Shown one piece after another: positions 4,232 through 19,694 of a stretch of 19,694 bases of DNA. Where the stretch lies: positions 1 through 19,694 of IMG/VR virus record IMGVR_UViG_2703718835_000001; one strand, 5' to 3'. A program made the position numbers and the translations under genes. This DNA is from a virus (Duplodnaviria > Heunggongvirae > Uroviricota > Caudoviricetes). Position 1 is the first letter of the stretch; each line of letters starts with the position of its first letter. Below the pieces are notes generated by a model. That model did not search any database, was not told the origin of the DNA, and saw only the letters and a program-made list of their open reading frames with translations.

Positions 4232-5473
4232 ATGCAAAGAATAGTTTTTTACTCTTGGCAATCTGATTTAAATGGAAAATGTAATAGAAATTTAATTCAA
4301 GATGCTTTGGTTAGATCTCTAAAAGCAATAAAAAAGGATGAAACAGAAACATTGGAGCCAGTCTTGGATCGTGATACTAATGGTTTAAATGGCTCACCAT
4401 CAATTAGCGAAAGCATTTTTAATAAAATATCACTTTCAGATGTTTTTGTTGCCGATGTTTCTATCATAAATGGAAGGTCTGAGGATAAGAAGACACCTAA
4501 TCCAAATGTTTTGATTGAATTAGGATATGCAGTATCCCAGCTAGGCTGGGATAGAGTAATCATGGTCCAGAATACATTTTATGGTTCTCCAGAAGAACTT
4601 CCTTTTGACTTAAGAGGACGGAGGGTAATTGCATATACTATGGACCCTGATAGTGATTCAAAACCTGAGGTAAGAAGCTTACTGCAAGGGCGACTTGAAA
4701 CTGCATTAAGGGAGTCCTTGAGTGATTCAAGCCAAGGAGCTATTTCTTCAGGTTTAAATGCACCAATATGGTGGGGGGAGTGGTACAAGGACAATCGCAG
4801 AAGTAATTTTGGCAAATTATTTATTCGTGAAACATCGTCAAATGGTTTTCTTTTTGATTTAGTAGTTATGAATGGATCACATTCTGGGAGTATTACAGGA
4901 GAGGCGGTTTTTGTAGCTAGAGATTCAGCTTACGCTAGAATAAAAATACCTGGAAGTAATGAATTTGGCGAGTTGAGTTTTAGGCGCAGCATATTTGATG
5001 GTAAACGATATATTAGGATAAGTGAGACCGTTAGTTGTCAATACTGGCGAGGTATGGGGGCCTTTTTTGATGGTGAGTTTCGTTGTGCAGAGGATCATTT
5101 GTTTTTATTTGGTTTTGCAAATGAAATGGAACTTCAGAGATTATACAACGTTATGGGGCAATATTACTTTGAACTGAAAAAAGTGATGGAGCAAATAGGT
5201 GAGCGCGATAATCTTGATACTTTTGTCGCAAAGGCTTATCAGGGAGGAGTTAGAGGACTTTATACCATTGCGGAAGGTATGGTGATGTTTGGTAGAGAGG
5301 GCGAGATATGGGCTATTTATCTCAATGATGGTGAAATTCGTTATTTCACAAATGTACATAAATGGAAAAAAACTATTCCAAAAACTTTTGAACAGTGGCG
5401 AGAACGATTTCCAGAGATTGAAATAAATTATGGAGGTGATATCTCGACACTTCCTACACAAGAAGATTTATAG
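4232..5473 (+). CDS. Cargo protein (413 aa) with N-terminal nucleoside 2-deoxyribosyltransferase/Rcl-like (SLOG/TIR-like fold) domain and uncharacterised C-terminal domain; candidate antiphage effector
   Basis: Ribosome-binding site AGGAGA 7 nt upstream. Markedly AT-rich against GC-rich phage flanks. The N-terminal 'RIVFYSWQSD' strand and 'NPNVLIELGYAVSQLGWDRVIMV' (Glu96, codon 4517-4519) resemble the catalytic-glutamate region of nucleoside deoxyribosyltransferases ('GMELGYALSQGKYVLLV', from memory). No Walker A motif, so it is not Old-like. The C-terminal ~270 aa have no recognisable motif. Confidence 0.75.
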   Translation: MQRIVFYSWQSDLNGKCNRNLIQDALVRSLKAIKKDETETLEPVLDRDTNGLNGSPSISESIFNKISLSDVFVADVSIINGRSEDKKTPNPNVLIELGYAVSQLGWDRVIMVQNTFYGSPEELPFDLRGRRVIAYTMDPDSDSKPEVRSLLQGRLETALRESLSDSSQGAISSGLNAPIWWGEWYKDNRRSNFGKLFIRETSSNGFLFDLVVMNGSHSGSITGEAVFVARDSAYARIKIPGSNEFGELSFRRSIFDGKRYIRISETVSCQYWRGMGAFFDGEFRCAEDHLFLFGFANEMELQRLYNVMGQYYFELKKVMEQIGERDNLDTFVAKAYQGGVRGLYTIAEGMVMFGREGEIWAIYLNDGEIRYFTNVHKWKKTIPKTFEQWRERFPEIEINYGGDISTLPTQEDL

Positions 5474-5480
5474 ACAAATG

Positions 5481-5513
5481 ACCCGCGATTCGCCAACGCG
5501 GGTTTTGTTTGTT
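5481..5513. terminator. Terminator hairpin between the convergent cargo gene and Q
   Basis: Stem ACCCGCG (5481-5487), loop ATTCGCCAA, stem CGCGGGT (5497-5503), followed by TTTGTTTGTT. It lies between the cargo stop (5473) and the Q stop (5525). It is strongest for the plus-strand transcript. Confidence 0.6.
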
Positions 5514-5524
5514 CAAAAAAATTA

Positions 5525-6568
5525 TTAAGTTATGTTGGGTTCAAATGCATAAGAATCAAAACGAATTACTTGTTCATTGGCCCAGCTATTCAGTTCCTCA
5601 AAACGCTTCTGTAGGGGGATCAGTTCATTTCGAACAAAAACACGGCTGGCCTTCTCCACATCCCCAAACCCCCCGACATTATTCGGCATAATCCCCATCA
5701 TCTGTGGCGGAACACGATGCGCCGCCATCATGTCATCGCGGCTGACGTTCTTGATGTTCAGAAATTCATCTTTCGCCGCGACTTCTGACAACGGGATGAT
5801 CTGAAGCCCGTCTTTTTTGCCGTTAGGCGAGTACATAAACAGGTTGCGGAAGTTGCCCGGGCCTTTGGCGCTTTTCATTGCGTTGCGGAGGTTGTTCACG
5901 TCCTCCTGGTTCTGCGCGGCATCGGTCATGTACATGATGAAGCCTGCATGACTGCCGTTAATGTAATACTTGCGGCGGAACAGCGTGGCGGACTCGTTGA
6001 GCAGGGCTGATGGAATGGCAGAAAGATAACCGGGCAGGCCGTAGATCTCCTGGTTGATATCCGGTTCCATCAGGTGAAAAATGCTGCCTTTCGTGAACTG
6101 ATACGGCTGGGTTGTCATACCGTATTGCACAAACCAGTAGGTATCCAGGTCTAACCCGCGTCGGGTGTATTTTGCCAGAGCAGGCTCAAGGGCGATAACT
6201 TCACCGAAGCGGTTCGTGCGTTTCTCCAGGTAGGCGTTACCAAATACCAGATAGTCCTGCACAAAACGTGAAAAAGCCTGCTGGCTGAGCAGCGGGTGAG
6301 GGATGTAGGTGCTGGTCAGAATGTTGCACTTTACTGCAATCGGTGAGCTGTGATGCACGGCGGCGCGAAAGGTGCGCGCCAGCCCGTCGAAACTCACTGG
6401 CGGCTCATACCAACGATCTGTCTGTACGCATTCCACATAGTCCAGCAGTTCGCGGCGGTCCAGAACAGGAACGGGATCACCGAAGCTGAATGCTTCGGCT
6501 GAAGTTTGGTTTTTATGCTGGATCTGATTCGTCGCCGCAGCGCGGTTTTTCTTACTCTTTCCCATCAA
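5525..6568 (-). CDS. Q: Portal protein, P2 gpQ family
   Basis: 347-aa ORF, convergent with the upstream cargo gene and overlapping the P stop by 4 bp. Position and size match P2 Q (about 344 aa). Confidence 0.88.
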   Translation of the reverse strand: MMGKSKKNRAAATNQIQHKNQTSAEAFSFGDPVPVLDRRELLDYVECVQTDRWYEPPVSFDGLARTFRAAVHHSSPIAVKCNILTSTYIPHPLLSQQAFSRFVQDYLVFGNAYLEKRTNRFGEVIALEPALAKYTRRGLDLDTYWFVQYGMTTQPYQFTKGSIFHLMEPDINQEIYGLPGYLSAIPSALLNESATLFRRKYYINGSHAGFIMYMTDAAQNQEDVNNLRNAMKSAKGPGNFRNLFMYSPNGKKDGLQIIPLSEVAAKDEFLNIKNVSRDDMMAAHRVPPQMMGIMPNNVGGFGDVEKASRVFVRNELIPLQKRFEELNSWANEQVIRFDSYAFEPNIT

Positions 6569-8473: not shown

Positions 8474-9307
8474 ATGACAGTGAAAGCAAAGCGTTTTCGC
8501 ATCGGGGTGGAAGGTGCCACTACCGACGGACGCGAAATCCAGCGTGAATGGCTGGAACAGATGGCAGCCAGCTACAATCCGGCGGTGTACACCGCGCTGA
8601 TTAACCTTGAGCACATCAAGTCTTATCTGCCGGACAGCACCTTTAACCGCTACGGCAAGGTGACGGCGCTGTTTGCTGAAGAAATCACGGAAGGTCCGCT
8701 GGCAGGCAAGATGGCACTGTATGCCGACGTTGAGCCAACGGAGTCCCTGGTGGAACTGGTGAAAAAAGGCCAGAAATTATTCACCTCTATGGAAGTCAGC
8801 CCGAAGTTTGCTGATACGGGCAAAGCCTACCTGGTCGGCCTGGCTGCCACTGATGATCCCGCCAGTCTGGGTACGGAAATGCTGACATTCAGCGCCAGTG
8901 CAGCCCATAACCCGCTGGCAAACCGCAAGCAGAATCCCGCCAATCTTTTTACCGCTGCAGAGGAAACGGTGATCGAACTGGAAGAAATCCAGGAGGACAA
9001 GCCGTCCCTGTTTGCCCGCGTCACGGCGCTGTTCACCAAAAAAGAGCAGTCCGATGATGCCCGGTTCTCTGATGTGCATAAGGCCGTGGAACTGGTCGCC
9101 ACGGAGCAGCAAAACCTGAGCACGCGCACCGAAAAATCCCTGTCTGAGCAGGAAGAACGCCTGTCTGAGATGGAGACTGCCCTGCAGGCACAACAAGCCG
9201 CCTTTAACGAACTGGTGGATAAGCTGAGTCATGAAGACAGCCGCCAGGACTACCGCCAGCGTGCAACAGGCGGTAACGCCCCCGCTGACACTCTGACCAA
9301 TTGCTGA
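8474..9307 (+). CDS. O: Capsid scaffolding protein, P2 gpO family
   Basis: 277-aa ORF (P2 gpO is about 284 aa) in the position between P and N. The acidic C-terminal half is typical of scaffold proteins. Confidence 0.85.
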   Translation: MTVKAKRFRIGVEGATTDGREIQREWLEQMAASYNPAVYTALINLEHIKSYLPDSTFNRYGKVTALFAEEITEGPLAGKMALYADVEPTESLVELVKKGQKLFTSMEVSPKFADTGKAYLVGLAATDDPASLGTEMLTFSASAAHNPLANRKQNPANLFTAAEETVIELEEIQEDKPSLFARVTALFTKKEQSDDARFSDVHKAVELVATEQQNLSTRTEKSLSEQEERLSEMETALQAQQAAFNELVDKLSHEDSRQDYRQRATGGNAPADTLTNC

Positions 9308-9323
9308 TGGAGCACAAAACCCG

Positions 9324-10382
9324 ATGAAGAAGAATACCCGCTTTGCTTTTAACGCTTACCTGCAGCAGCTGGCGCGTCTGAACGGTGTGGCAGTTGAAGA
9401 ACTGTCCAGCAAGTTCACCGTCGAACCGTCCGTGCAGCAGACGCTGGAAGACCAGATCCAGCAGTCCGCCGCTTTCCTGACACTGATTAACGTCACGCCA
9501 GTGACTGAGCAGTCCGGTCAGTTGCTGGGGCTGGGTGTTGGCAGCACCATTGCCGGAACCACTGATACCACCGCGAAAGAGCGTGAACCTGTCGATCCGA
9601 CGCTGATGGTCGATGTGGAATATAAATGCGAGCAGACCAACTTTGACACGGTGCTGACCTACGCGAAGCTGGACCTGTGGGCGAAGTTTCAGGATTTCCA
9701 GGTGCGTATCCGTGACGCCATCGTGAAACGTCAGGCACTGGACCGCATCATGATCGGCTTTAACGGCGTGAAGCGCGCGAAAACCTCTAACCGTAGCGAA
9801 AACCCGCTGCTGCAGGATGTGAACAAAGGCTGGTTGCAGAAAATCCGTGAGGATGCACCGGATCACGTCATGGGCAGCACCACCACGGGCGGTGAAACCA
9901 CACCGGGTACGGTGAAAGTCGGGAAAGGTGGCGAATATGCCAACCTGGACGCCGTGGTGATGGATGCCGTCAATGAGCTTATCGACGTGGTCTACCAGGA
10001 CGATGACGATCTGGTGGTGATTTGCGGGCGTGAACTGCTGTCTGACAAGTATTTCCCGCTGGTCAACAAAGAGCAGGAGAACAGTGAAAAACTGGCTGCC
10101 GATATGATCATCAGTCAGAAACGCATGGGGGGCTTGCAGGCCGTGCGTGCGCCATTCTTCCCGCCGAATGCGCTGCTGATCACCCGTCTGGATAACCTGT
10201 CCATCTACTGGCAGGAAGACACCCGCCGCCGTTCAGTTATCGACAACCCGAAACGTGACCGGATTGAAAATTTTGAATCCGTTAACGAAGCCTATGTGGT
10301 TGAAGACTACCGCTGCGCTGCACTGGTGGAAAACATCCAGATTGGCGATTTCAGCGCCGCCGCAGCAGAAACCGGAGCGTAA
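9324..10382 (+). CDS. N: Major capsid protein, P2 gpN family
   Basis: 352-aa ORF. Long collinear similarity to remembered P2 gpN, e.g. 'TRFAFNAYL', 'KFTVEPSV', 'LDLWAKFQDFQVRIRDAIVKRQ', 'VGKGGEYANLDA', 'ISQKRMG'. Confidence 0.92.
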   Translation: MKKNTRFAFNAYLQQLARLNGVAVEELSSKFTVEPSVQQTLEDQIQQSAAFLTLINVTPVTEQSGQLLGLGVGSTIAGTTDTTAKEREPVDPTLMVDVEYKCEQTNFDTVLTYAKLDLWAKFQDFQVRIRDAIVKRQALDRIMIGFNGVKRAKTSNRSENPLLQDVNKGWLQKIREDAPDHVMGSTTTGGETTPGTVKVGKGGEYANLDAVVMDAVNELIDVVYQDDDDLVVICGRELLSDKYFPLVNKEQENSEKLAADMIISQKRMGGLQAVRAPFFPPNALLITRLDNLSIYWQEDTRRRSVIDNPKRDRIENFESVNEAYVVEDYRCAALVENIQIGDFSAAAAETGA

Positions 10383-10385
10383 TCC

Positions 10386-11036
10386 ATGAGCCTGAGTCCC
10401 GCACGGCAGCATCGCCTGCGCGTTCAGGCTGAACAGGCCGCCCGCGAGGGCGGCAGCGTTCGCCACGCGTCGGGCTATGACCTGATGCTGCTGCAACTGG
10501 CGGAAGACCGACGCCGTCTCAAGGGCGTTCAGTCCACGGTGAAAAAAGCGGAAATAAAGGTGGAGCTGCTGCCGAAATATGCCGCCTGGGCGGAGGGCGT
10601 CCTGGCTGCCGGAGGCGCTCAACAGGATGACGTGCTGATGTACGTGATGCTGTGGCGCATTGATGCCGGAGATTATGCCGGGGCGCTGGAGATTGGGCGT
10701 CATGCCCTGCGTCATGGCTGGGTGATGCCGCTGGGTAACCGCAACGTGCAGACCGTGCTGGCAGAGGAAATGGCAGATGCAGCCCAGAGCGCAATGCTTG
10801 CCGCCACCGGCTTTGATGCCGATCTGTTGCTGCAGACGCTGGAGCTGACAGACGGTCTGGATATGCCGGACCAGTCACGGGCGCGTCTGCATAAAGCGAT
10901 TGGCGCTGTCCTGAGTGAAAGCAATCCGGCTTCCGCCCTTAATCATATCAACCATGCGTTACAGCTCGATCCCCGCTGTGGCGTGAAAAAAGACAAACAG
11001 CAGCTGGAGCGCAGACTGCGCAATGACAGCCGCTGA
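10386..11036 (+). CDS. M: Terminase small (endonuclease) subunit, P2 gpM family
   Basis: 216-aa ORF directly after N. Motifs 'RVQAEQAAREGG..RHA', 'QDDVLMYVMLWRID.GDYAGALEIGR' and 'TLELT...DMPD' match remembered P2 gpM. Confidence 0.85.
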   Translation: MSLSPARQHRLRVQAEQAAREGGSVRHASGYDLMLLQLAEDRRRLKGVQSTVKKAEIKVELLPKYAAWAEGVLAAGGAQQDDVLMYVMLWRIDAGDYAGALEIGRHALRHGWVMPLGNRNVQTVLAEEMADAAQSAMLAATGFDADLLLQTLELTDGLDMPDQSRARLHKAIGAVLSESNPASALNHINHALQLDPRCGVKKDKQQLERRLRNDSR

Positions 11037-11131
11037 CAGAACGTGCCCCCGCGCACGGGCGGCACGGGGTGGCGAAAGGCACTGCCACATCAAAACCCCG
11101 TCCACCGCCCTTTATTTCAGGAGAAAGCAGC

Positions 11132-11596
11132 ATGAAGTTTGTTGCGCCAGAACAGGCACCGGAACAGGCGGAAATCATCAGAAATACGCCGTTCTGGCCT
11201 GATGTGGACCTGTCGGAGTTTCGCAGTGTCATGCGCACTGACGGCACAGTGACGCAGCCGCGTTTAAAGCAGGTTGCGCTGTCGGCAATTTCGGAGGTCA
11301 ACGCAGAGCTGTATGAGTTTCGCAGACGTCAGCAGATGCTGGGATATGCCTCGCTGGCAGAGGTTCCGGCGGAACAGCTGGAGGGCAAAAGTGAGCGCAT
11401 TCATCACTATTTCAACGCGGTTTACTGCTGGGCACGCGCCATGCTCAACGAGCGTTATCAGGACTATGACGCCACGGCATCCGGTGTGAAGCGGGGCGAG
11501 GAACTGGCGGAAGCAAGCGGTGATTTGTGGCGTGACGCCCGCTGGGCCATCAGCCGGGTGCAGGATGCGCCGCACTGCACAGTGGAGCTTATCTGA
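11132..11596 (+). CDS. L: Head completion/stabilisation protein, P2 gpL family
   Basis: The ORF track begins at 11069, but the internal ATG at 11132 has an AGGAGA ribosome-binding site and gives 'MKFVAPE...', collinear with gpL ('ELYE.R', 'LWRD.RWA..R.Q'). Confidence 0.82.
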   Translation: MKFVAPEQAPEQAEIIRNTPFWPDVDLSEFRSVMRTDGTVTQPRLKQVALSAISEVNAELYEFRRRQQMLGYASLAEVPAEQLEGKSERIHHYFNAVYCWARAMLNERYQDYDATASGVKRGEELAEASGDLWRDARWAISRVQDAPHCTVELI

Positions 11597-11799
11597 TGAA
11601 AGTGCGTGCGCATCAGTATGACACGGTGGACGCGCTTTGCTGGCGTCATTACGGGCGCACGCAGGGTGTCACGGAGCAGGTACTGAAGGCAAATCCGGGG
11701 CTTGCCGAATTTGGCCCCTTTTTACCTCACGGGCTGCAGGTGGAGCTGCCGGACATTCCGACCACCACCACCGTGCAGACCGTCCAGCTATGGGACTGA
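11596..11799 (+). CDS. X: Tail protein X, P2 gpX family
   Basis: 67 aa. 'YGRTQGVTEQVLKANPGLAEFGPFLPHG..VELPD' closely matches remembered P2 gpX ('YGRTEGVVETVLAANPGLAELGAVLPHGTAVELPD'). Confidence 0.88.
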   Translation: MKVRAHQYDTVDALCWRHYGRTQGVTEQVLKANPGLAEFGPFLPHGLQVELPDIPTTTTVQTVQLWD

Positions 11800-11802
11800 A
11801 TT

Positions 11803-12018
11803 ATGACGCTTGAGCGAATCAGCGCCTTTATCACGTATTGCATCGCCGTTGTGCTGGCCTGGCTGGGCGATTTGTCCATCAAGGATGCCTCAACGCTGGG
11901 CGGCCTGATGATCGGTGTGCTGATGCTGGCTATCAACTGGTACTACAAACACAAAGCCTACCAGCTTCTGCGCGACGGGCAGATCTCGCGGGAGGACTAT
12001 GAATCCATCAATCGTTAA
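11803..12018 (+). CDS. Holin (two predicted transmembrane segments; possible pinholin)
   Basis: 71 aa with two hydrophobic stretches ('ISAFITYCIAVVLAWLG', 'LGGLMIGVLMLAINWYY') and a charged C-terminus. Immediately upstream of, and overlapping, the endolysin. Confidence 0.7.
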   Translation: MTLERISAFITYCIAVVLAWLGDLSIKDASTLGGLMIGVLMLAINWYYKHKAYQLLRDGQISREDYESINR

Positions 12019-12514
12019 ACGCTGCCTTGTCGGGGCCGTGCTGGCTATTGCTGCCACGCTGCCGGGGTTTCAGCAACTTCACACCTCCGTGGAGGGGCTG
12101 AAACTGATTGCCGATTACGAAGGCTGTCGTCTGCAGCCGTATCAGTGCAGCGCGGGTGTCTGGACCGACGGCATTGGTAATACGTCGGGCGTCATTCCCG
12201 GCAAAACTATTACGGAACGACAGGCAGCAGAAGGACTGATCTCCAACGTGCTACGTGTGGAGCGGGCGCTGGAAAGGTGTGTGAAGCAACAGCCGCCGCA
12301 GAAGGTGTATGACGCTACGGTGTCGTTTGCCTTCAACGTGGGGACGGGCAATGCCTGTAGTTCCACGCTGGTGAAATTGCTCAATCAGCGGCGCTGGGCG
12401 GATGCGTGCCGACAGTTGCCGCGCTGGGTTTATGTGAAAGGTGTTTTTAATCAGGGGCTGGATAACCGCCGTGCGCGGGAGATGGCCTGGTGCCTTAAAG
12501 GAGCTGGACTATGA
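11999..12514 (+). CDS. K: Endolysin, lysozyme family with N-terminal signal-anchor-release (SAR) domain
   Basis: 171 aa. N-terminal hydrophobic 'LVGAVLAIAATLPGF' followed by the lysozyme motif 'EGLKLIADYEGCRLQPYQCSAGVWTDGIGNT' (catalytic E-8aa-D-5aa-T type). Confidence 0.85.
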   Translation: MNPSIVKRCLVGAVLAIAATLPGFQQLHTSVEGLKLIADYEGCRLQPYQCSAGVWTDGIGNTSGVIPGKTITERQAAEGLISNVLRVERALERCVKQQPPQKVYDATVSFAFNVGTGNACSSTLVKLLNQRRWADACRQLPRWVYVKGVFNQGLDNRRAREMAWCLKGAGL

Positions 12515-12939
12515 CACGTGCGCTGGCGGTAGTGGCGGCGCTGGCACTCGTTGCGCTGGGCTGGCAGTCGTGGCGGCTTAACAGCGCCAGCCACACCATC
12601 GAAACGCAGCGCGCGGCGCTGAAAAGTAAAGCGCACGAACTAACGAAGAAAAATAGCCAGCTGATCAGTCTGTCCATTCTGGCTGAAACCAACAATCGGG
12701 AGCAGGCGCGGCTCTACGCCGAAGCAGAACAGACCAGTGCACTGCTGAGACAACGACAACGCCGGATTGAGGAACTGAAACGTGAGAACGAGGATTTACG
12801 CCGCTGGGCTGATACTCCTTTGCCTGCTGACATTATCCGGCTGCGGAAACGTCCGGCATTCACCGGAGGTGCAGCTTACCGTCAGTGGTTGTCCGCGAGT
12901 GACGCCGTGTCGGCTGGATCAGGCAACGCCGCGCACTAA
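12511..12939 (+). CDS. lysB: i-spanin (LysB/Rz-like)
   Basis: 142 aa. N-terminal transmembrane segment 'ALAVVAALALVALGW', then a coiled-coil-like charged region. Start overlaps the endolysin stop. Confidence 0.8.
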   Translation: MTRALAVVAALALVALGWQSWRLNSASHTIETQRAALKSKAHELTKKNSQLISLSILAETNNREQARLYAEAEQTSALLRQRQRRIEELKRENEDLRRWADTPLPADIIRLRKRPAFTGGAAYRQWLSASDAVSAGSGNAAH

Positions 12940-13072
12940 CGGTGATCTGAACGCGTTGCTGGATGAAACGGAGGCCGCCTGGGCGGTCTGTGCAGACAAA
13001 GTGGACATGATTATTGCGTGTCAGGAGCGAAACAGTGAACAAACCACAATCCCTGCGCCACGCCCTCAATAA
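12782..13072 (+). CDS. lysC: o-spanin lipoprotein (LysC/Rz1-like), overlapping the lysB 3' end in another frame
   Basis: 96 aa. Lipoprotein signal with lipobox 'LTLSGC', Pro-rich mature region. Overlapping out-of-frame with lysB, as in P2. Confidence 0.7.
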   Translation: MRTRIYAAGLILLCLLTLSGCGNVRHSPEVQLTVSGCPRVTPCRLDQATPRTNGDLNALLDETEAAWAVCADKVDMIIACQERNSEQTTIPAPRPQ

Positions 13073-13466
13073 AGCGGTGCCTTATGTCCGCAATACCCCG
13101 GACAAACTGCATCTGTTTGTGGATAACGGTTCGCTGGTTGCTACGGGGGCCAGCTCCATGTCATGGGAGTACCGTTACACCCTGAACGTGGTGATTGAGG
13201 ATTTCAGTGGCGACCAGAATCTGCTGATGGCCCCGGTTTTGCTGTGGCTGCGTGATAACCAGCCCGATGCCATCAATAACCCGGCGTTATGGGAAAAACT
13301 ATTCACCTTTGAGGTGGATATTCTGCGCAACGATGTCTGTGATATCAGCCTTAACCTGCAACTGACGGAACGTGTGCTGGTCAGCACTGACGGCACTGTG
13401 TCCAGCGTTGAAGCTGTAGCGGAACCCGATGAACCTGAAGAAATGTGGACGGTGAAACGTGGCTGA
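13035..13466 (+). CDS. R: Tail completion protein, P2 gpR family
   Basis: The ORF track begins at 13014. A GTG at 13035 with an AGGAG ribosome-binding site 7 nt upstream is preferred. 'PDKLHLFVDNGSL' is typical of gpR. Start is uncertain. Confidence 0.78.
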   Translation: MNKPQSLRHALNKAVPYVRNTPDKLHLFVDNGSLVATGASSMSWEYRYTLNVVIEDFSGDQNLLMAPVLLWLRDNQPDAINNPALWEKLFTFEVDILRNDVCDISLNLQLTERVLVSTDGTVSSVEAVAEPDEPEEMWTVKRG

Positions 13467-13905
13467 ACTGCAGAAGGTGGACGACTGGCTGAGTGCCTTG
13501 CTGGCGAATCTGGAGCCAGCCGCAAGAAGCCGCATGATGCGCCAGCTGGCGCAGGAACTGCGCCGGACACAGCAGCAGAATATCAGGATGCAGCGCAACC
13601 CTGACGGCAGCAGCTATGAACCGCGACGGGTAACAGCACGCAGTAAAAAAGGCCGTATCAAACGTCAGATGTTTGCAAAGCTGCGCACCACAAAATACCT
13701 GAAAACTGCCGCCAGCGCCGATTCTGCCAGCGTGCAGTTTGAAGGTAAGGTGCAGCGTATTGCCCGCGTTCACCATTACGGCCTGCGTGATCGCGTCAGT
13801 CGTAAAGGGCCGGAGATCCGTTACGCAGAGCGTCGCCTGCTGGGTGTAAATGATGATGTTGAGACAATGACCCGCGACATGATTCTGCAATGGCTGGCGG
13901 GGTGA
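13459..13905 (+). CDS. S: Tail completion protein, P2 gpS family
   Basis: 148 aa with a GTG start overlapping the R stop. Position and size match gpS. Confidence 0.8.
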   Translation: MAELQKVDDWLSALLANLEPAARSRMMRQLAQELRRTQQQNIRMQRNPDGSSYEPRRVTARSKKGRIKRQMFAKLRTTKYLKTAASADSASVQFEGKVQRIARVHHYGLRDRVSRKGPEIRYAERRLLGVNDDVETMTRDMILQWLAG

Positions 13906-13909
13906 TCTT

Positions 13910-13927
13910 TGTATCAGCACTGATACA
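13910..13927 (+). promoter_or_regulatory. Late-promoter activator dyad TGT-N12-ACA upstream of V
   Basis: TGTATCAGCACTGATACA, part of the near-perfect palindrome TTGTATCAG-CA-CTGATACAA (13909-13928), in the S-V intergenic region where P2 has its V late promoter. Confidence 0.5.
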
Positions 13928-13973
13928 AGTTGCAGCACTGCCGCCTTTCTTCTCCTGATGGCAACCTTTCTCT

Positions 13974-14552
13974 ATGAACGCACAATTAACCGAAATCATG
14001 CGCCTTATCACCAACCTGATCCGCACTGGGGTAGTCACCGAAGTGGACAGGGCAAACTGGCTGTGTCGGGTGAAAACTGGCGACCTCGAAACCAACTGGA
14101 TTAACTGGCTGACACTGCGCGCGGGCAAATCGCGCACCTGGTGGAAACCGTCTGTGGGCGAGCAGGTTGTGCTGTTCAGCCTGGGTGGCGATCTGGAAAC
14201 CGCGTTTGCCCTGCCTGCGGTCTACTCAAACCAGTTTCCACCACCTTCAGATTCTGAGGACGGCAACGTGGTTGAGTACCCGGACGGTGGCTGGTTTGAA
14301 TACGAACCCGCCACCGGGCGCTGGTATGTCAGGGGCATCAAATCAATGGTCATTGAAGCCGCTGACAACATCACCATGAAAACCAGTGAGTTTGTACTGG
14401 AGGCTGACCGCACGCGCATTAACAGCGAAGTGGTGATCAATGGTGGCGTTACCCAGGGCGGCGGAGCGATGAGTTCTAACGGGATCGTGGTTGATGCGCA
14501 TCAGCATACTGGCGTCCTGAAAGGCGGCGACACAACCGGAGGCCCGGTATGA
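13974..14552 (+). CDS. V: Baseplate spike/hub protein, P2 gpV family
   Basis: 192 aa. 'IRTGVVTEVD', 'RAGKSRTWWKPSVGEQVVLFSLGGDLETAFALPAVYS' and 'SSNGIVVDAHQHTG' match remembered P2 gpV. Confidence 0.88.
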   Translation: MNAQLTEIMRLITNLIRTGVVTEVDRANWLCRVKTGDLETNWINWLTLRAGKSRTWWKPSVGEQVVLFSLGGDLETAFALPAVYSNQFPPPSDSEDGNVVEYPDGGWFEYEPATGRWYVRGIKSMVIEAADNITMKTSEFVLEADRTRINSEVVINGGVTQGGGAMSSNGIVVDAHQHTGVLKGGDTTGGPV

Positions 14553-14908
14553 CGCTTTATAGCGGGATGAACAATACCAGCGGTAAAGCCATTACTGATA
14601 TTGACCATCTGCGCCAGTCGGTGCGGGACATTCTGCTGACGCCGCAGGGTAGCCGCATTGCTCGTCGGGAATATGGTTCCCTGCTGTCGGCACTGATAGA
14701 TCAGCCACAAAATCCGGCGTTACGCCTGCAGGTTATGTCGGCTGTGTATGTGGCACTGAGTCGCTGGGAGCCACGGCTGACGCTGGATTCCATCACTATT
14801 AACAGCAATTTTGACGGTTCAATGGTGGTGGCGCTGAACGGGCGGCGTAATAACGGTGTGCCTGTTTCCCTTTCCGTATCAACAGGAGCAGAGAATGGCA
14901 GTGATTGA
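14549..14908 (+). CDS. W: Baseplate protein, P2 gpW (gp25-like) family
   Basis: 119 aa. ATGA overlap with the V stop. 'LRQSVRDILLTPQGSRIARREYGS' is typical of gp25/gpW. Confidence 0.85.
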   Translation: MTLYSGMNNTSGKAITDIDHLRQSVRDILLTPQGSRIARREYGSLLSALIDQPQNPALRLQVMSAVYVALSRWEPRLTLDSITINSNFDGSMVVALNGRRNNGVPVSLSVSTGAENGSD

Positions 14909-15803
14909 CCTTTCGCAGTTGCCTGCGCCGCAGATTGTGGATGTGCCGGACTTTGAGACGTTGCTTGCCGAACGCAAGGCAGAATTTGTGGCGCTTCATC
15001 CGAAAGATGAGCAGGAAGCAGTGAGCCGCACACTGGAACTGGAATCTGAACCCGTCACCAAATTGCTGCAGGAGAACGCTTATCGTGAGTTGCTTCTGCG
15101 CCAGCGCATTAACGAAGCCGCGCAGGCGGTGATGGCGGCTTATGCCATAGGGAGCGATCTGGACCAGCTCGCTGCCAATTACAACGTGAAACGCCTGACG
15201 GTGACGCCTGCTGATAATGACGCTGTGCCGCCCGTCGCGGCTGTGATGGAAAGTGATGAAGCGTTACGCCTGCGTGTGCCTGCGGCTTTTGAAGGGCTTT
15301 CGGTTGCGGGGCCAACTGCCGCTTATGAATTTCATGCCCGAAGCGCCGACGGTCGGGTGGCGGATGCCAGTGCAACCAGTCCGGCACCTGCAGAGGTGGT
15401 GCTGACTGTCCTGAGCCGCGAAGGCGATGGAACAGCAGAAAAAGACCTGCTGGACGTGGTGGAAAAAGCTCTGAACAGTGAGAACGTCCGCCCAGTGGCT
15501 GACCGTCTTACGGTTCGCAGCGCAGAAATCATCCCGTACCGGGTGGAAGCCACTATTTTTCTCTATCCGGGACCGGAAGCAGAGCCGGTAATGGCAGCGG
15601 CAAAAGCCAGCCTGCAGAAGTACATCGCCAGTCAGACGCGTCTTGGTCGGGATATTCGCCGTAGCGCCATCTTTGCCGCCCTGCATGTTGAGGGTGTGCA
15701 GCGTGTGGAGCTGGCTTCTCCTCTGGCGGATATGGTCCTGAACAAAACACAGGCGGCATCATGTACGCAGTGGAGCGTAACCAACGGAGGAACGGATGAA
15801 TAG
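14895..15803 (+). CDS. J: Baseplate wedge protein, P2 gpJ family
   Basis: The ORF track begins at 14856. The ATG at 14895 with an AGGAG ribosome-binding site gives 302 aa, the size of P2 gpJ. Confidence 0.85.
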   Translation: MAVIDLSQLPAPQIVDVPDFETLLAERKAEFVALHPKDEQEAVSRTLELESEPVTKLLQENAYRELLLRQRINEAAQAVMAAYAIGSDLDQLAANYNVKRLTVTPADNDAVPPVAAVMESDEALRLRVPAAFEGLSVAGPTAAYEFHARSADGRVADASATSPAPAEVVLTVLSREGDGTAEKDLLDVVEKALNSENVRPVADRLTVRSAEIIPYRVEATIFLYPGPEAEPVMAAAKASLQKYIASQTRLGRDIRRSAIFAALHVEGVQRVELASPLADMVLNKTQAASCTQWSVTNGGTDE

Positions 15804-16401
15804 TCTGCTGCCACCGGGTTCAACACCACTGGAGCGCCGATTGGCGCAAACCTGCAGCGGGATTTCTGATCTGCAGGTGCCGCTTCGTGACTTGTGGAAT
15901 CCGGTAACCTGTCCGGTCAGTTTCCTGCCTTATCTCGCCTGGGCGTTCTCTGTGGATCGCTGGGACGAGGGCTGGACAGAAAGCGTCAAGCGCCAGGTGG
16001 TGAAGGATGCTTTTTATATTCATCAGCATAAAGGGACCACCAGTGCCGTGCGGCGGGTGGTGGAGCCGTTCGGCTTTTTGATCCGCATTATTGAGTGGTG
16101 GCAGACCGGAGAGGCACCGGGCACGTTTCGCCTGGATATCGGCGTGCAGGACCAGGGCATCACTGAAGATACCTATCTGGAACTTGAGCGACTGATAAGC
16201 GATGCCAAACCATGTAGCCGCCACATGATCGGCATGTCCATCAATCTGCAGACCAGCGGCCCGCATTGGGTGGGAGCCGCCAGCTATCTTGGCGAAGAAA
16301 TCACGATCTATCCGTATATCAACGAAACAATTATTTCTGGCGGCACCGCGCATGAAGGCGGGGCGGTCCATGTTATTGACACAATGAGAGTGAATCCATG
16401 A
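15796..16401 (+). CDS. I: Baseplate protein, P2 gpI family
   Basis: 201 aa. Overlaps the J stop. Conserved position between J and the tail fibre gene. Confidence 0.82.
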   Translation: MNSLLPPGSTPLERRLAQTCSGISDLQVPLRDLWNPVTCPVSFLPYLAWAFSVDRWDEGWTESVKRQVVKDAFYIHQHKGTTSAVRRVVEPFGFLIRIIEWWQTGEAPGTFRLDIGVQDQGITEDTYLELERLISDAKPCSRHMIGMSINLQTSGPHWVGAASYLGEEITIYPYINETIISGGTAHEGGAVHVIDTMRVNP

Positions 16402-18086
16402 GCACAAAATTTTATACCCTGCTGACGGAGATTGGTGCGGCGAAACTTGCCAGCGCCGCCGCGCTCGGTGTGCCGCTTAAAATTACCCATATGGCGGTGG
16501 GGGATGGTGGTGGAGCATTGCCGACGCCGGACGCAAAGCAGACTGCACTGGTAAATGAGAAACGCCGGGCTGCGCTGAATATGCTCTATATCGACCCGCA
16601 GAACAGCAGCCAGATTATTGCTGAACAGGTGATCCCCGAAAACGAGGGCGGTTGGTGGATCCGTGAAGTGGGCCTGTTTGATGAATCCGGGGCATTGATT
16701 GCCGTGGGCAACTGCCCGGAAAGCTATAAGCCGCAACTGGCTGAAGGCAGCGGGCGCACCCAGACCGTGCGCATGGTGCTGATTACCAGCAGTACGGAAA
16801 ATATCACCCTGAAAATCGACCCTGCTGTAGTGCTGGCAACCCGCAAGTATGTGGATGACAAGGTACTGGAGCTGAAGGTGTATGTGGATGACCTGATGGC
16901 AAAGCATCTTGCCGCACCGGACCCGCATTCACAGTACGCGCCAAAAGCCAGCCCGACGTTTACCGGAACCCCCAAAGCGCCAACTCCAGAGGCAGGGAAT
17001 AACACCACGCAGGTTGCGACCACCGCGTTTGTTCAGGCGGCACTGCTCACCCTGATTGACGGTGCGCCAGCCACGCTGGACACGCTGAAAGAAATTGCAG
17101 CTGCTATTAATAATGACCCGAAATTCAGTACCACCATTAACAATGCGCTGGCACTCAAAGCACCGCTGTCGAGTCCTGCACTCACCGGAACGCCAACAGC
17201 ACCTACTGCGGCACAGTCGGTCAACAATACACAGATTGCCACCACGGCTTTTGTGAAATCGGCAATTGCGGCAATGGTGGGTTCTGCACCTGCGGCACTG
17301 GATACGCTGAACGAACTGGCGGCGGCGCTGGGGAATGACCCGAACTTTGCCACGACAATGCTCAATTCGCTGGCGGGAAAACAACCGCTGGATAATACGC
17401 TGACTAATTTGAGTGGAAAGGATGTTGCTGGTCTTCTCGCATACCTTGGTTTAGTAAATAACGGCGCAGTCGGTCGTCTGATTGGCATGCAGATAATCAA
17501 GACGTCTGGCACTTACACCAAAACTCCCGGAGCAATGTTCGCGGATGTCATCGCTATTGGGGGCGGTGGGGGCGGCGGATGGGCAACTTCCACAGCAAAC
17601 TATAACGCCGCGGGTGGTGGTGGCGGTGGCGGCGGAATGGCACGGGGTCTCTTTAACCTGTCTGCAATATCAACCGTGCTTGTCACGATTGGTGCGGGTG
17701 GTAATGGCGGTATTGCGTCGACGATAACCCATGGCGCACAGGGCGGCACGACGACTTTTGGCTCTTATCTCTCAGCAGGTGGAGGCCAGCCAGGCAACGG
17801 CTGCACCGCGTCAGTCTCCTCTGCGTCATGTGGCATGGGCGGTAATGGTGGCACTTCGACCGTGGGTGCCCTTTTGTGCAACGGGTACGCCGGGCTGCCC
17901 GGTGTGATGGCAACCCCAACAGCAGTCGGAGGGACTGTAGGTTCCGGACTTGGCGGCGGTAGCTTTATTTCTGGCCCTGGTGGGTATGGTGCTGGTGGTA
18001 ATGGCGCTGCAACCAGTGGTGGGGCGCAGAATGTCAACGGCAACCCGGGCAATGCTGGCGTGATTATTATTTTGGAGTATGCGTAA
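16398..18086 (+). CDS. H: Tail fibre protein, P2 gpH family, with internal tail-fibre repeats and a glycine-rich C-terminal receptor-binding region
   Basis: 562 aa. The N-terminus 'MSTKFYTLLTEIGAAKLA...' is gpH-like. Two tandem ~75-aa repeats carry 'TGTP.APT......NT..ATTAFV' and '...AP..LDTL.E.AAA..NDP.F'. The C-terminal ~180 aa are Gly-rich with polyglycine runs. Confidence 0.88.
   Translation: MSTKFYTLLTEIGAAKLASAAALGVPLKITHMAVGDGGGALPTPDAKQTALVNEKRRAALNMLYIDPQNSSQIIAEQVIPENEGGWWIREVGLFDESGALIAVGNCPESYKPQLAEGSGRTQTVRMVLITSSTENITLKIDPAVVLATRKYVDDKVLELKVYVDDLMAKHLAAPDPHSQYAPKASPTFTGTPKAPTPEAGNNTTQVATTAFVQAALLTLIDGAPATLDTLKEIAAAINNDPKFSTTINNALALKAPLSSPALTGTPTAPTAAQSVNNTQIATTAFVKSAIAAMVGSAPAALDTLNELAAALGNDPNFATTMLNSLAGKQPLDNTLTNLSGKDVAGLLAYLGLVNNGAVGRLIGMQIIKTSGTYTKTPGAMFADVIAIGGGGGGGWATSTANYNAAGGGGGGGGMARGLFNLSAISTVLVTIGAGGNGGIASTITHGAQGGTTTFGSYLSAGGGQPGNGCTASVSSASCGMGGNGGTSTVGALLCNGYAGLPGVMATPTAVGGTVGSGLGGGSFISGPGGYGAGGNGAATSGGAQNVNGNPGNAGVIIILEYA
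16944..17393 (+). repeat. Tandem duplication (2 x ~225 bp) inside H encoding tail-fibre repeat units
   Basis: Copy 1 (about 16944-17168) and copy 2 (about 17169-17393) encode 'KASPTFTGTPKAPTPEAGNNTTQVATTAFV...' and 'SSPALTGTPTAPTAAQSVNNTQIATTAFV...', clearly related repeats. Confidence 0.6.
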
Positions 18087-18482
18087 ATGAACTATGCAAT
18101 TATCAAAAATGGTATCGTAGAAAATATTGTTATCTGGGATGGCGAGTCAGAGTGGCCTGAATCAGCAAGTGCCATTCTCTCTACCGATGGTGTTGGTATC
18201 GGCTGGCATTACGATAACGATGTTTTTAGTGCGCCACCGCCAACTAATAAAGAACTTGAGGCAGCAAAACAGCAGAAAATAGCCAATAATCTGGCTACAA
18301 AAAACGCACTGATGAGTGAGGCGACACAACAGATTAGCGTTTTACAGGATGCTGTTGATTTGAGTATGGCGACAGATGCAGAAACCGTAGCGCTGCCATT
18401 GTGGAAGCAATACCGGGTATTGCTGAGCAGGATTGACGCTAACACTAATGCAGAGATTAGCTGGCCGGAAAAGCCAGCTTGA
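18087..18482 (+). CDS. G: Tail fibre assembly chaperone, P2 gpG/Tfa family
   Basis: 131 aa. The C-terminal 'LPLWKQYRVLLSRID...ISWPEKP' is typical of Tfa proteins. Lower GC than upstream tail genes. Confidence 0.85.
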   Translation: MNYAIIKNGIVENIVIWDGESEWPESASAILSTDGVGIGWHYDNDVFSAPPPTNKELEAAKQQKIANNLATKNALMSEATQQISVLQDAVDLSMATDAETVALPLWKQYRVLLSRIDANTNAEISWPEKPA

Positions 18483-18492
18483 ATTACTTCAT

Positions 18493-19575
18493 CTATTTTT
18501 TATTTAGCAATTTATAACAAGCCGCAAGAACATCGTCTGGTGATATATTCGACATCGGAATTGCTGAGCCAGACCAGCCATGTGCATTTATAAAATCTTT
18601 TGTGCCTACCTTGTTTTGTATCTCTGGTGGGAAAACCGTAATACAGTTCGAAAATTCCTCAGGGTATGGCACAAATGCATGCAAACCAGTACCATTCGAA
18701 ATACAAACAGTTTTAATCCCTGCCAGAGCACCAACATGGAACATGCCTGTGTCGTTTGCAATCAAAAGTTCAGATGAAAGAACAATATCGCACGACTCAG
18801 ATAATGTAGTCCTTCCAACAAAACCTGCTACAATATCCTTGTTATCGATATGCTCAATAAGAACATTGTAATCTGAAATTTCATCATTGGAGCCAATGAT
18901 TTTAAAATTGGCATTGTATGAAGATGATATGCTGTTTATTACATTTGCTAATTGTAATACAGGGTATTTTTTAAAAGGCGCAGAGGCTCCCAGTGAAATG
19001 CAAATATCAATCTTGCCACTGTCTTTATTTTTATTTTTTAGTGGAATTTCAACTTCGAATTTAGGAAATGGTATAATCTCAGAGAAAAACTCTTTATTCA
19101 TATCCAGGACATGCTTTGAAAAATCAATATCCGGCTTTGTGGAATAGCCAAAAAACTCCCTTTGATGGTCAGGTATATTCATACCATTGATGATGGCTCT
19201 ATCCCTCACACTAGAGATAAATGGAGTAACACGCAAAGTAGTTGACGCACCCCACCAATCTGGAACTATAATCTCATCGAAATTTGAGTGCTTAATTAAA
19301 TTTCTGATGTAAAACCTGATGGCTTTATTTTTAATCTTAGTATATGTGCTCTCTTTGGTTTGCACATAAGGAGTAACCTTATTACAATCAACCCAAATGA
19401 AATGATTAAATATATTCATATCAAACTTGAGAGAAAAATCTTTGAATGCAGTGTTGCCAAGCAAGGTGAATTTAGCGTGCTTATATTTTTCATCATCGCG
19501 GAGTGATTTCATGAATACTCGTGATAATAAGTGATCTCCGATGCCCACCAAGCTAACTATCAATACTTTTTTCAT
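18493..19575 (-). CDS. Glycosyltransferase family 9 (ADP-heptose:LPS heptosyltransferase-like) cargo protein
   Basis: 360 aa from the ATG at 19575, with a GAGGT ribosome-binding site upstream on the minus strand (the ORF track extends to 19611). N-terminal 'MKKVLIVSLVGIGDHLL' and C-terminal 'IANDTGMFHVGALAGIKTVCISNGTG' resemble GT9 heptosyltransferase signatures (WaaC 'MRVLIVKTSSMGDVLHTLP' and 'VSVDTGLSHLTAALDRPNITVYGPT', from memory). AT-rich. Convergent with G, with a 10-bp gap. Confidence 0.7.
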   Translation of the reverse strand: MKKVLIVSLVGIGDHLLSRVFMKSLRDDEKYKHAKFTLLGNTAFKDFSLKFDMNIFNHFIWVDCNKVTPYVQTKESTYTKIKNKAIRFYIRNLIKHSNFDEIIVPDWWGASTTLRVTPFISSVRDRAIINGMNIPDHQREFFGYSTKPDIDFSKHVLDMNKEFFSEIIPFPKFEVEIPLKNKNKDSGKIDICISLGASAPFKKYPVLQLANVINSISSSYNANFKIIGSNDEISDYNVLIEHIDNKDIVAGFVGRTTLSESCDIVLSSELLIANDTGMFHVGALAGIKTVCISNGTGLHAFVPYPEEFSNCITVFPPEIQNKVGTKDFINAHGWSGSAIPMSNISPDDVLAACYKLLNKK

Positions 19576-19694
19576 TATGTACCTCAATTTTTTTGTGTTA
19601 ATGGTACACACTCAGGAGTCATGAGTCGATAGTATCATGGCGTCGGGACAGGGGTTTACTACTCTCATCTTAAAGCAACCTTTGAAAATGGTCA

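Follow-up and report, generated by a model that had tools for sequence, protein, structure and literature searches.

Two described tail proteins come closest to the element examined here, the glycine-rich C-terminal tip of a tail fibre. In cyanophage Pam3 (gp24 with its chaperone gp25; PDB 7YPX, 7YFW), the strands of a tumour necrosis factor (TNF)-like beta-sandwich run on into a glycine-rich domain, in which 12 glycine-rich motifs form a four-layer lattice; its distal tips are poorly conserved and were proposed as receptor binders, and a trimeric chaperone, whose N-domain is similar to Mu Tfa, clasps the glycine-rich unit (PMC9608196). The second is gp33, the 'tail wing brush' of mycobacteriophage Bxb1, described along with the gp29 tail spike subdomain (PDB 9D93). 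For both Pam3 gp24 and Bxb1 gp33 a parallel to the gp38 adhesins has been drawn earlier (PMC9608196; PMC13243192; bioRxiv 10.1101/2023.11.25.568672). In the invertible segments of Mu (G/Gin), P1 (C/Cin) and e14 (P/Pin), a serine invertase adjoins a segment that carries a variable fibre tip and its Tfa, with inverted 26-bp sites, each with a 2-bp core, inside the fibre gene at the border of its constant and variable parts. The DNA analysed here (IMG/VR record IMGVR_UViG_2703718835_000001, 19,694 nucleotides, hereafter the window) is the late part of an Escherichia coli prophage of the P2-like type, and its tail fibre gene H is our subject. We conclude that the C-terminal ~200 amino acids (aa) of H are very probably an exchangeable TNF-like/glycine-rich (Gly_rich_2) tip of the Pam3 gp24/Bxb1 gp33 family, forming the variable arm of a Gin/Hin-type invertible segment and chaperoned by the neighbouring gene product G. 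The parts of H are as follows.

16398..18086, plus strand: H, tail fibre (562 aa; open reading frame with translation), with a P2-type N-terminal collar/shaft and a glycine-rich tip
16398..17445, plus strand: constant part of H (aa 1-349), common to other P2-like phages at ~93% nucleotide identity
17475..18083, plus strand: TNF-like beta-sandwich and glycine-rich lattice domain (H aa ~360-562), the presumed receptor-binding tip

Pfam places H aa 370-553 in Gly_rich_2 (PF21722) with an E-value of 3e-9 and 37.5 bits (cut-off 24.3), covering profile positions 3-218 of 226, and the tip alone scored 33.8 bits. A profile built from 51 homologues matched Pam3 gp24 over the whole domain (E 1.7e-20; profile positions 38-284, chain residues 53-284). 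An AlphaFold2 model of H aa 341-562, computed as a monomer only from the 51-sequence alignment, reached a predicted local distance difference test (pLDDT) score of 88 and a predicted template modelling (pTM) score of 0.83, being weaker around aa 501-530; it superposes on solved structures and has the beta-sandwich and glycine-lattice fold. In a structure search 255 viral models, many of them tail fibre proteins, matched the tip at E<=1e-3, while a single-sequence search retrieved 1865 cluster representatives at 50% identity from proteins of very different lengths, the match being C-terminal in most of the 150 representatives listed. The arrangement seen for H, with the domain C-terminal on the fibre and a Tfa-like chaperone gene behind it, recurs in loci L006-L012. 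A tblastn search with the tip against the phage collection gave three weak partial matches only, so sequenced phage isolates essentially lack this tip. No literature on PF21722 or Gly_rich_2 was retrieved, and annotation pipelines already call this family 'glycine-rich domain-containing protein'. The family is known, widespread and structurally solved, and the H tip is an ordinary representative; what is unusual at the locus is the glycosyltransferase (GT9) arm described below.

The tip is in the same family as Bxb1 gp33, yet it is set in a different context from either relative. The N-terminal part of Pam3 gp24 is a short alpha-helical shaft, whereas that of H is a P2-type collar and repeat-bearing shaft of 350 aa; the chaperone, in contrast to Pam3 gp25, is a classical Caudo_TAP protein of 131 aa; and the H tip sits on an invertible segment, none being noted in the Pam3 fibre paper (PMC9608196). 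Bxb1 is a siphovirus in which gp33 and gp29 are accessory tail-tip proteins, whereas the domain here ends a P2-type fibre. The extracellular TNF-like/glycine-rich (TG) domain of ALK/LTK differs further, being a larger eukaryotic receptor domain with 14 polyproline II (PPII) helices that binds cytokine ligands, and the tip gave no Pfam cross-match to it. The family profile also matched the N-terminal ~200 residues of RemZ (PDB 8gl8_D, 1114 aa; E 1.6e-4), a match which suggests that Gly_rich_2 domains may occur in non-phage bacterial surface proteins as well. Some database entries for tips of the H type are mislabelled 'carbohydrate kinase'.

The tip lies on a cassette that is found in both orientations, and that is bounded by two short inverted sites.

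17446..19678, no strand assigned: invertible cassette carrying tip, G and GT9; both orientations found
17434..17459, plus strand: left crossover site TTCTCGCATACC-TT-GGTTTAGTAAAT, core TT at 17446-17447, within codon L350
19665..19690, plus strand: right crossover site TCATCTTAAAGC-AA-CCTTTGAAAATG, core AA at 19677-19678, in inverted orientation to the left site
18087..18482, plus strand: G, tail fibre assembly chaperone (131 aa), Caudo_TAP at aa 40-131 (Pfam, E 4e-23)
18493..19575, minus strand: GT9-family glycosyltransferase (360 aa), the second arm, Glyco_transf_9 (Pfam, E 3e-7, 30.3 bits, cut-off 22)

Window positions 17443-19678 align without gaps, at 99.2% identity, to a segment in two E. 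coli genomes (L002 and L004), where the cassette is part of a Mu-like (StfP) prophage, has a serine recombinase beside it and is turned the other way with respect to the fibre gene; the StfP fibre gene there is annotated as lacking its C-terminus. The orientation that completes the fibre is found in the window and in L001, L003 and L005, and the other in L002, L004 and L013. The last of these is a metagenomic P2-like scaffold that carries the flipped state on a P2 backbone: its H ends at 353 aa (...LTYLALR*), GT9 lies in sense 90 nt further on, and G and the tip lie on the other strand, followed by the invertase. Its junctions are the exact reciprocal products of an exchange at the TT/AA core, the junction reading CATACC-TT-GGTTTAG in the window orientation and CATACC-TT-GCTTTAAGAT when flipped. 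Since the StfP copies are opposite, and L013 is flipped on a P2 backbone with reciprocal junctions, the cassette is known on two backbones, P2-like and Mu-like StfP, and in both orientations. A 188-aa invertase with Resolvase and HTH_7 domains stands directly to the right of the segment in L001, L003 and L013, its place being taken by an IS3 element in L005. The window ends 16 nt past the right core, and in L001 and L003, prophages 95-97% identical to it across the aligned late region, the invertase lies directly beyond that point. The last 16 nt of the window (19679-19694, CCTTTGAAAATGGTCA) differ from the invertase-proximal flank of these relatives (CGTTTAAGAAAATGCAG), so that the window copy may carry another invertase allele or a flank that was rearranged. 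Pipelines annotating the flipped state predict a 199-226-aa 'glycine-rich domain-containing protein' from the invertase-proximal flank (L002:9045-9644, L004:3961-4641, L013:5490-6167), which probably represents no real gene but the tip arm, silent and without a promoter.

The two sites are short and imperfect, and were recognised through homology breakpoints. Megablast of H against phage genomes aligned only its nt 1-1055, which share ~93% identity with Escherichia phage Cartapus, with phage 500465-1 and with numerous P2-like phages of Klebsiella, and the alignment ended at window 17452; this constant portion includes the Phage_tail_fib domain (H aa 1-150, Pfam E 3e-65). The left site coincides with the homology breakpoints and has the AAACC-NN-GGTTT pattern of gix and hix (cores compared from PMC3985619), and at the other end the gapless homology to the flipped copies L002 and L004 stops at 19678. 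Thus two inverted sites with a 2-bp core and AAACC-NN-GGTTT-like half-sites bound the segment, as in segments of the Gin/Hin/Cin/Pin type. A generic search for inverted repeats yielded no long one around the segment, and a scan for the pattern AAACCNNGGTTT was uninformative on its own: it matched 9 times where 8.8 matches were expected, and just one of these, at 17441, falls on a breakpoint. The sites and the carriage of tip and Tfa listed above for Mu, P1 and e14 recur here, and an adjoining serine invertase is seen in L001, L003 and L013. In contrast to those systems, however, the second arm in the window is GT9 in place of an alternative tip and Tfa, so that one orientation gives a tipless H of 353 aa. 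Two alternative fibre C-termini, each with its Tfa, are absent from the window, and this canonical form was found only in L011, a classical two-arm invertible segment with an H-type tip as one arm.

The earlier note on this DNA had proposed that the fibre tip is a modular domain, probably acquired by recombination together with G. The modular part of this proposal is strongly supported by the genome comparisons, in which homology to P2-like phages breaks at 17452 and the tip is carried on at least four different fibre shafts. At 92-94% DNA identity it is joined to a 309-aa Mu-like Stf and to fibres of 325 and 356 aa, and in these copies the homology extends from the crossover site to window 18145, ~58 nt into G. 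Joint acquisition with G held only in part: an identical G accompanies the tip in the P2-like and StfP prophages, but elsewhere only the N-terminal part of the Tfa travels with it, and tips of 92-94% identity precede a Tfa of only 38-39% overall identity to G. The unit of exchange is either the tip with the N-terminal part of the Tfa, or the whole invertible cassette. Tfa genes were compared between window 18087-18482, L006:5930-6334, L010:5930-6334 and L012:6071-6475, and G itself proved to be a mosaic. The first ~50 aa of G share the motif MN..YA.I.NG.V.NI..WDGE ... GIGW ... VF..PP with the Tfa proteins behind related tips, while the rest of G is a different Tfa allele, in keeping with the end of DNA homology at 18145. 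The C-terminus of G matches Mu Tfa U (5yvq_B; E 7e-9). The N-terminal domain of G is thus matched to the tip, its C-terminal domain being the conserved Tfa domain.

Within the tip, two long polyglycine runs stand out.

17559..17579, plus strand: poly-glycine run 1 (G388-G394), codons GGG GGC GGT GGG GGC GGC GGA; columns conserved and gap-free in the 51-sequence alignment
17613..17636, plus strand: poly-glycine run 2 (G406-G413), mixed GGT/GGC/GGA codons; columns conserved and gap-free; tandem-repeat score 33

Both polyglycine strings quoted by the earlier note are present in the translation of H, 'GGGGGGGW' at aa 388-395 (nt 17559-17582) and 'AAGGGGGGGGMARG', which holds the run of eight at aa 406-413 (nt 17613-17636), and these runs of seven and eight are the sole glycine runs of five or more in the window when all six frames are scanned. 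Of the 182 residues in H aa 381-562, 58 (31.9%) are glycine, as against 28 of 380 (7.4%) in aa 1-380 (binomial P 3e-22). Mean column entropy among the 51 homologues was 1.15 bits for glycine and 2.34 bits for non-glycine positions, and the description of runs interspersed with short variable segments is thus accurate, the glycines being conserved and the other positions variable. The region had been taken to begin at 17540; it is real, but this start is too late, since the folded domain begins near aa 360 (nt ~17475), with nt 17446/17448 as the start of the exchangeable module. Among 16 tips of 89-99% identity to that of H, recurrent substitutions fell at A400, I443/H445/A447, G461, V473/S474, N483, L492, S540/G541/A543 and N549/P550/N552. 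None fell in the two poly-glycine runs, G461 and G541 being glycines of shorter runs. This pattern fits loop-based specificity, and the position of the loops between glycine motifs would place them on the distal face. Cysteines lie in the tip at C469 (17802-17804), C478 (17829-17831) and C494 (17877-17879); the first two flank the variable segment 'TASVSSAS' between glycine motifs, with C494 16 residues further on, and the pair could be the staple of a disulfide-bridged loop. All three are missing from tips of 55-59% identity (for example P0022).

The glycine-rich stretch could be envisaged as a flexible, disordered, low-complexity or collagen-like linker without a defined fold, its length varying by slippage at GGN codons, a source of variation that had also been suggested for this DNA. 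Its glycine content is indeed high, small tandem units occur in H at 17558-17575 and 17613-17635, and giant-virus 'collagen-like' proteins are among the structural matches of the tip. However, the predicted structure is of high confidence and superposable on solved structures, and the lengths of the runs are kept through the gap-free columns of the 51 homologues. At the DNA level, the alignment of the cassette copies is gapless over its 2236 bp, the gaps against the more distant copies L006 and L012 being confined to the H/G junction, and the runs are encoded by mixed codons with minimal tandem-repeat scores (33-36). With no indels in the runs of homologues or DNA copies, the slippage proposal finds no support and the linker reading is scarcely credible; the glycine-rich region of H is a structured domain rather than a low-complexity tract. 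The resemblance to gp38-type adhesins, which the earlier note had drawn, calls for a finer distinction. Shared with gp38 of the T2/S16/PP01 type (PDB 6F45, 9V85) is the design, a conserved glycine-rich lattice of PPII and polyglycine II (PGII) strands presenting hypervariable loops at the fibre tip, but every profile and pairwise test for homology was negative. The tip gave no match to Pfam GP38 (PF05268) or Gp38_N (PF21721), either with full-length H at E<=0.1 or with the tip alone at E<=10, whereas S16 gp38 taken from the phage genome, the positive control, matched the GP38 profile at 4e-73. Alignment of the family against S16 gp38 by hhalign had a probability of 1.2% and covered 13 columns of one poly-glycine run, BLASTP of the tip against S16 gp38 gave an E-value of 3.4, the family profile matched no gp38 chain at E<=10, and gp38 was absent from the best 50 Foldseek matches of the tip model in the PDB. 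The folds differ as well, since gp38 combines a beta-helix with a three-layer sandwich bearing 10 glycine motifs and does not have the TNF-like sandwich of the H tip. Moreover, gp38 is a separate, small, monomeric protein that attaches to gp37 through an N-terminal attachment domain, while the H domain is the fused C-terminus of H itself and, by analogy, a trimeric tip. One BFVD structure match of the tip is named 'Gp38 [Synechococcus phage syn9]', which we take to be just a gene number; it lends no support to a link with the T-even gp38 adhesin. A true gp38 homologue fused to the end of H is thus highly improbable, and the tip plausibly works like a gp38 without being one, the link being one of analogy and not of homology.

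A different objection accepts the Gly_rich_2 fold but assigns it mainly the role of a structural cap or chaperone-docking module, with specificity lying elsewhere, for instance in a separate protein or in the repeats of the shaft. In its favour, the Pam3 chaperone attaches to the side of the Gly_rich_2-type domain (PMC9608196), and the receptor role of the H tip is one that we infer. Against this, the domain is the extreme C-terminal and distal element of H, recurrent substitutions concentrate in its loops, and the shaft is ~93% conserved across phages of Escherichia and Klebsiella. It is also the tip that phages exchange and that inversion switches, and by analogy with Mu, P1 and e14, where the variable part sets host range, this would point to the tip as the determinant. 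We therefore consider a merely structural role unlikely, and retain the reading of H as a fibre with an exchangeable, receptor-binding Gly_rich_2 tip.

On this reading, and by analogy with the solved structures, the small beta-sandwich of the tip would extend glycine-rich hairpins, whose glycine runs would pack as PPII/PGII-type strands in a lattice. The non-glycine segments that join them, variable among relatives, most likely form the distal receptor-contacting surface, and it is these loops that would touch the surface receptor. G would bind the tip through its tip-specific N-domain and probably aids folding and trimerisation of the tip, while its conserved C-domain may promote a trimerisation that starts at the C-terminus, in line with proposals for Mu and Pam3. 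H is complete in the window orientation and is cut short in the other, with GT9 in sense behind it.

The GT9 gene is an orphan, and any role for it is one that we infer. Its GC content is 36% as against 52% for the whole window. Its matches to heptosyltransferase models of NCBIfam are weak and all below cut-off. GT9 forms one 90% cluster of 33 sequences, the next relatives being 27% identical, and the context of one ~27% relative (P0077, locus L014) was checked and proved to be a polysaccharide gene cluster; no relatives were found in representative genomes. Scans for promoters of GT9, in the cassette interior and in the invertase-proximal flank, gave no convincing promoter. GT9 has a GAGG ribosome-binding site, and in the flipped state it would be read from the late tail operon. 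One possibility is that GT9 is a moron that took the place of the second tip, the flipped state being simply defective. The alternative is that the flip is a functional two-state switch and not a decayed G-segment, alternating between a glycine-tipped fibre and a tipless H with operon read-through into an orphan heptosyltransferase-like GT9 that would modify the lipopolysaccharide (LPS) core, so that binding and receptor modification or self-exclusion would be coupled on one invertible cassette moving between P2-like and Mu-like prophages; we regard this as possible but doubtful. For P2-type fibres the LPS core is the probable class of receptor. In P2-like tailocin loci of Xenorhabdus, a role in self-resistance has been suggested for glycosyltransferases of the invertible hypervariable region (bioRxiv 10.1101/2025.04.19.648921).

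In the wider window, the two aligned blocks (9123-13835 and 13974-19690) share 95-97% identity with annotated P2-family prophages of complete E. coli genomes, whose gene set comprises a capsid scaffold, a P2-family major capsid protein, lysis genes, baseplate genes V/W/J/I, the tail fibre and a tail fibre assembly protein. The interval 13835-13974 between these blocks is a variable moron site: L001 has an extra hypothetical gene of ~660 bp on the reverse strand here (4716-5535), between the virion morphogenesis gene and baseplate gene V, which the window is without.

For annotation, P2-like/Stf fibre tips of the H type would be better named Gly_rich_2 (Pam3 gp24-type) receptor-binding tips than gp38 relatives or 'carbohydrate kinase'. 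For phage engineering, the crossover site at L350 and the point ~20 codons into the Tfa gene offer natural junctions for fibre swaps, and the substitution hot-spots mark loops worth mutating. The GT9 arm, if functional, would tie a switch in fibre specificity to LPS modification, similar to the Xenorhabdus tailocin proposal (bioRxiv 10.1101/2025.04.19.648921).

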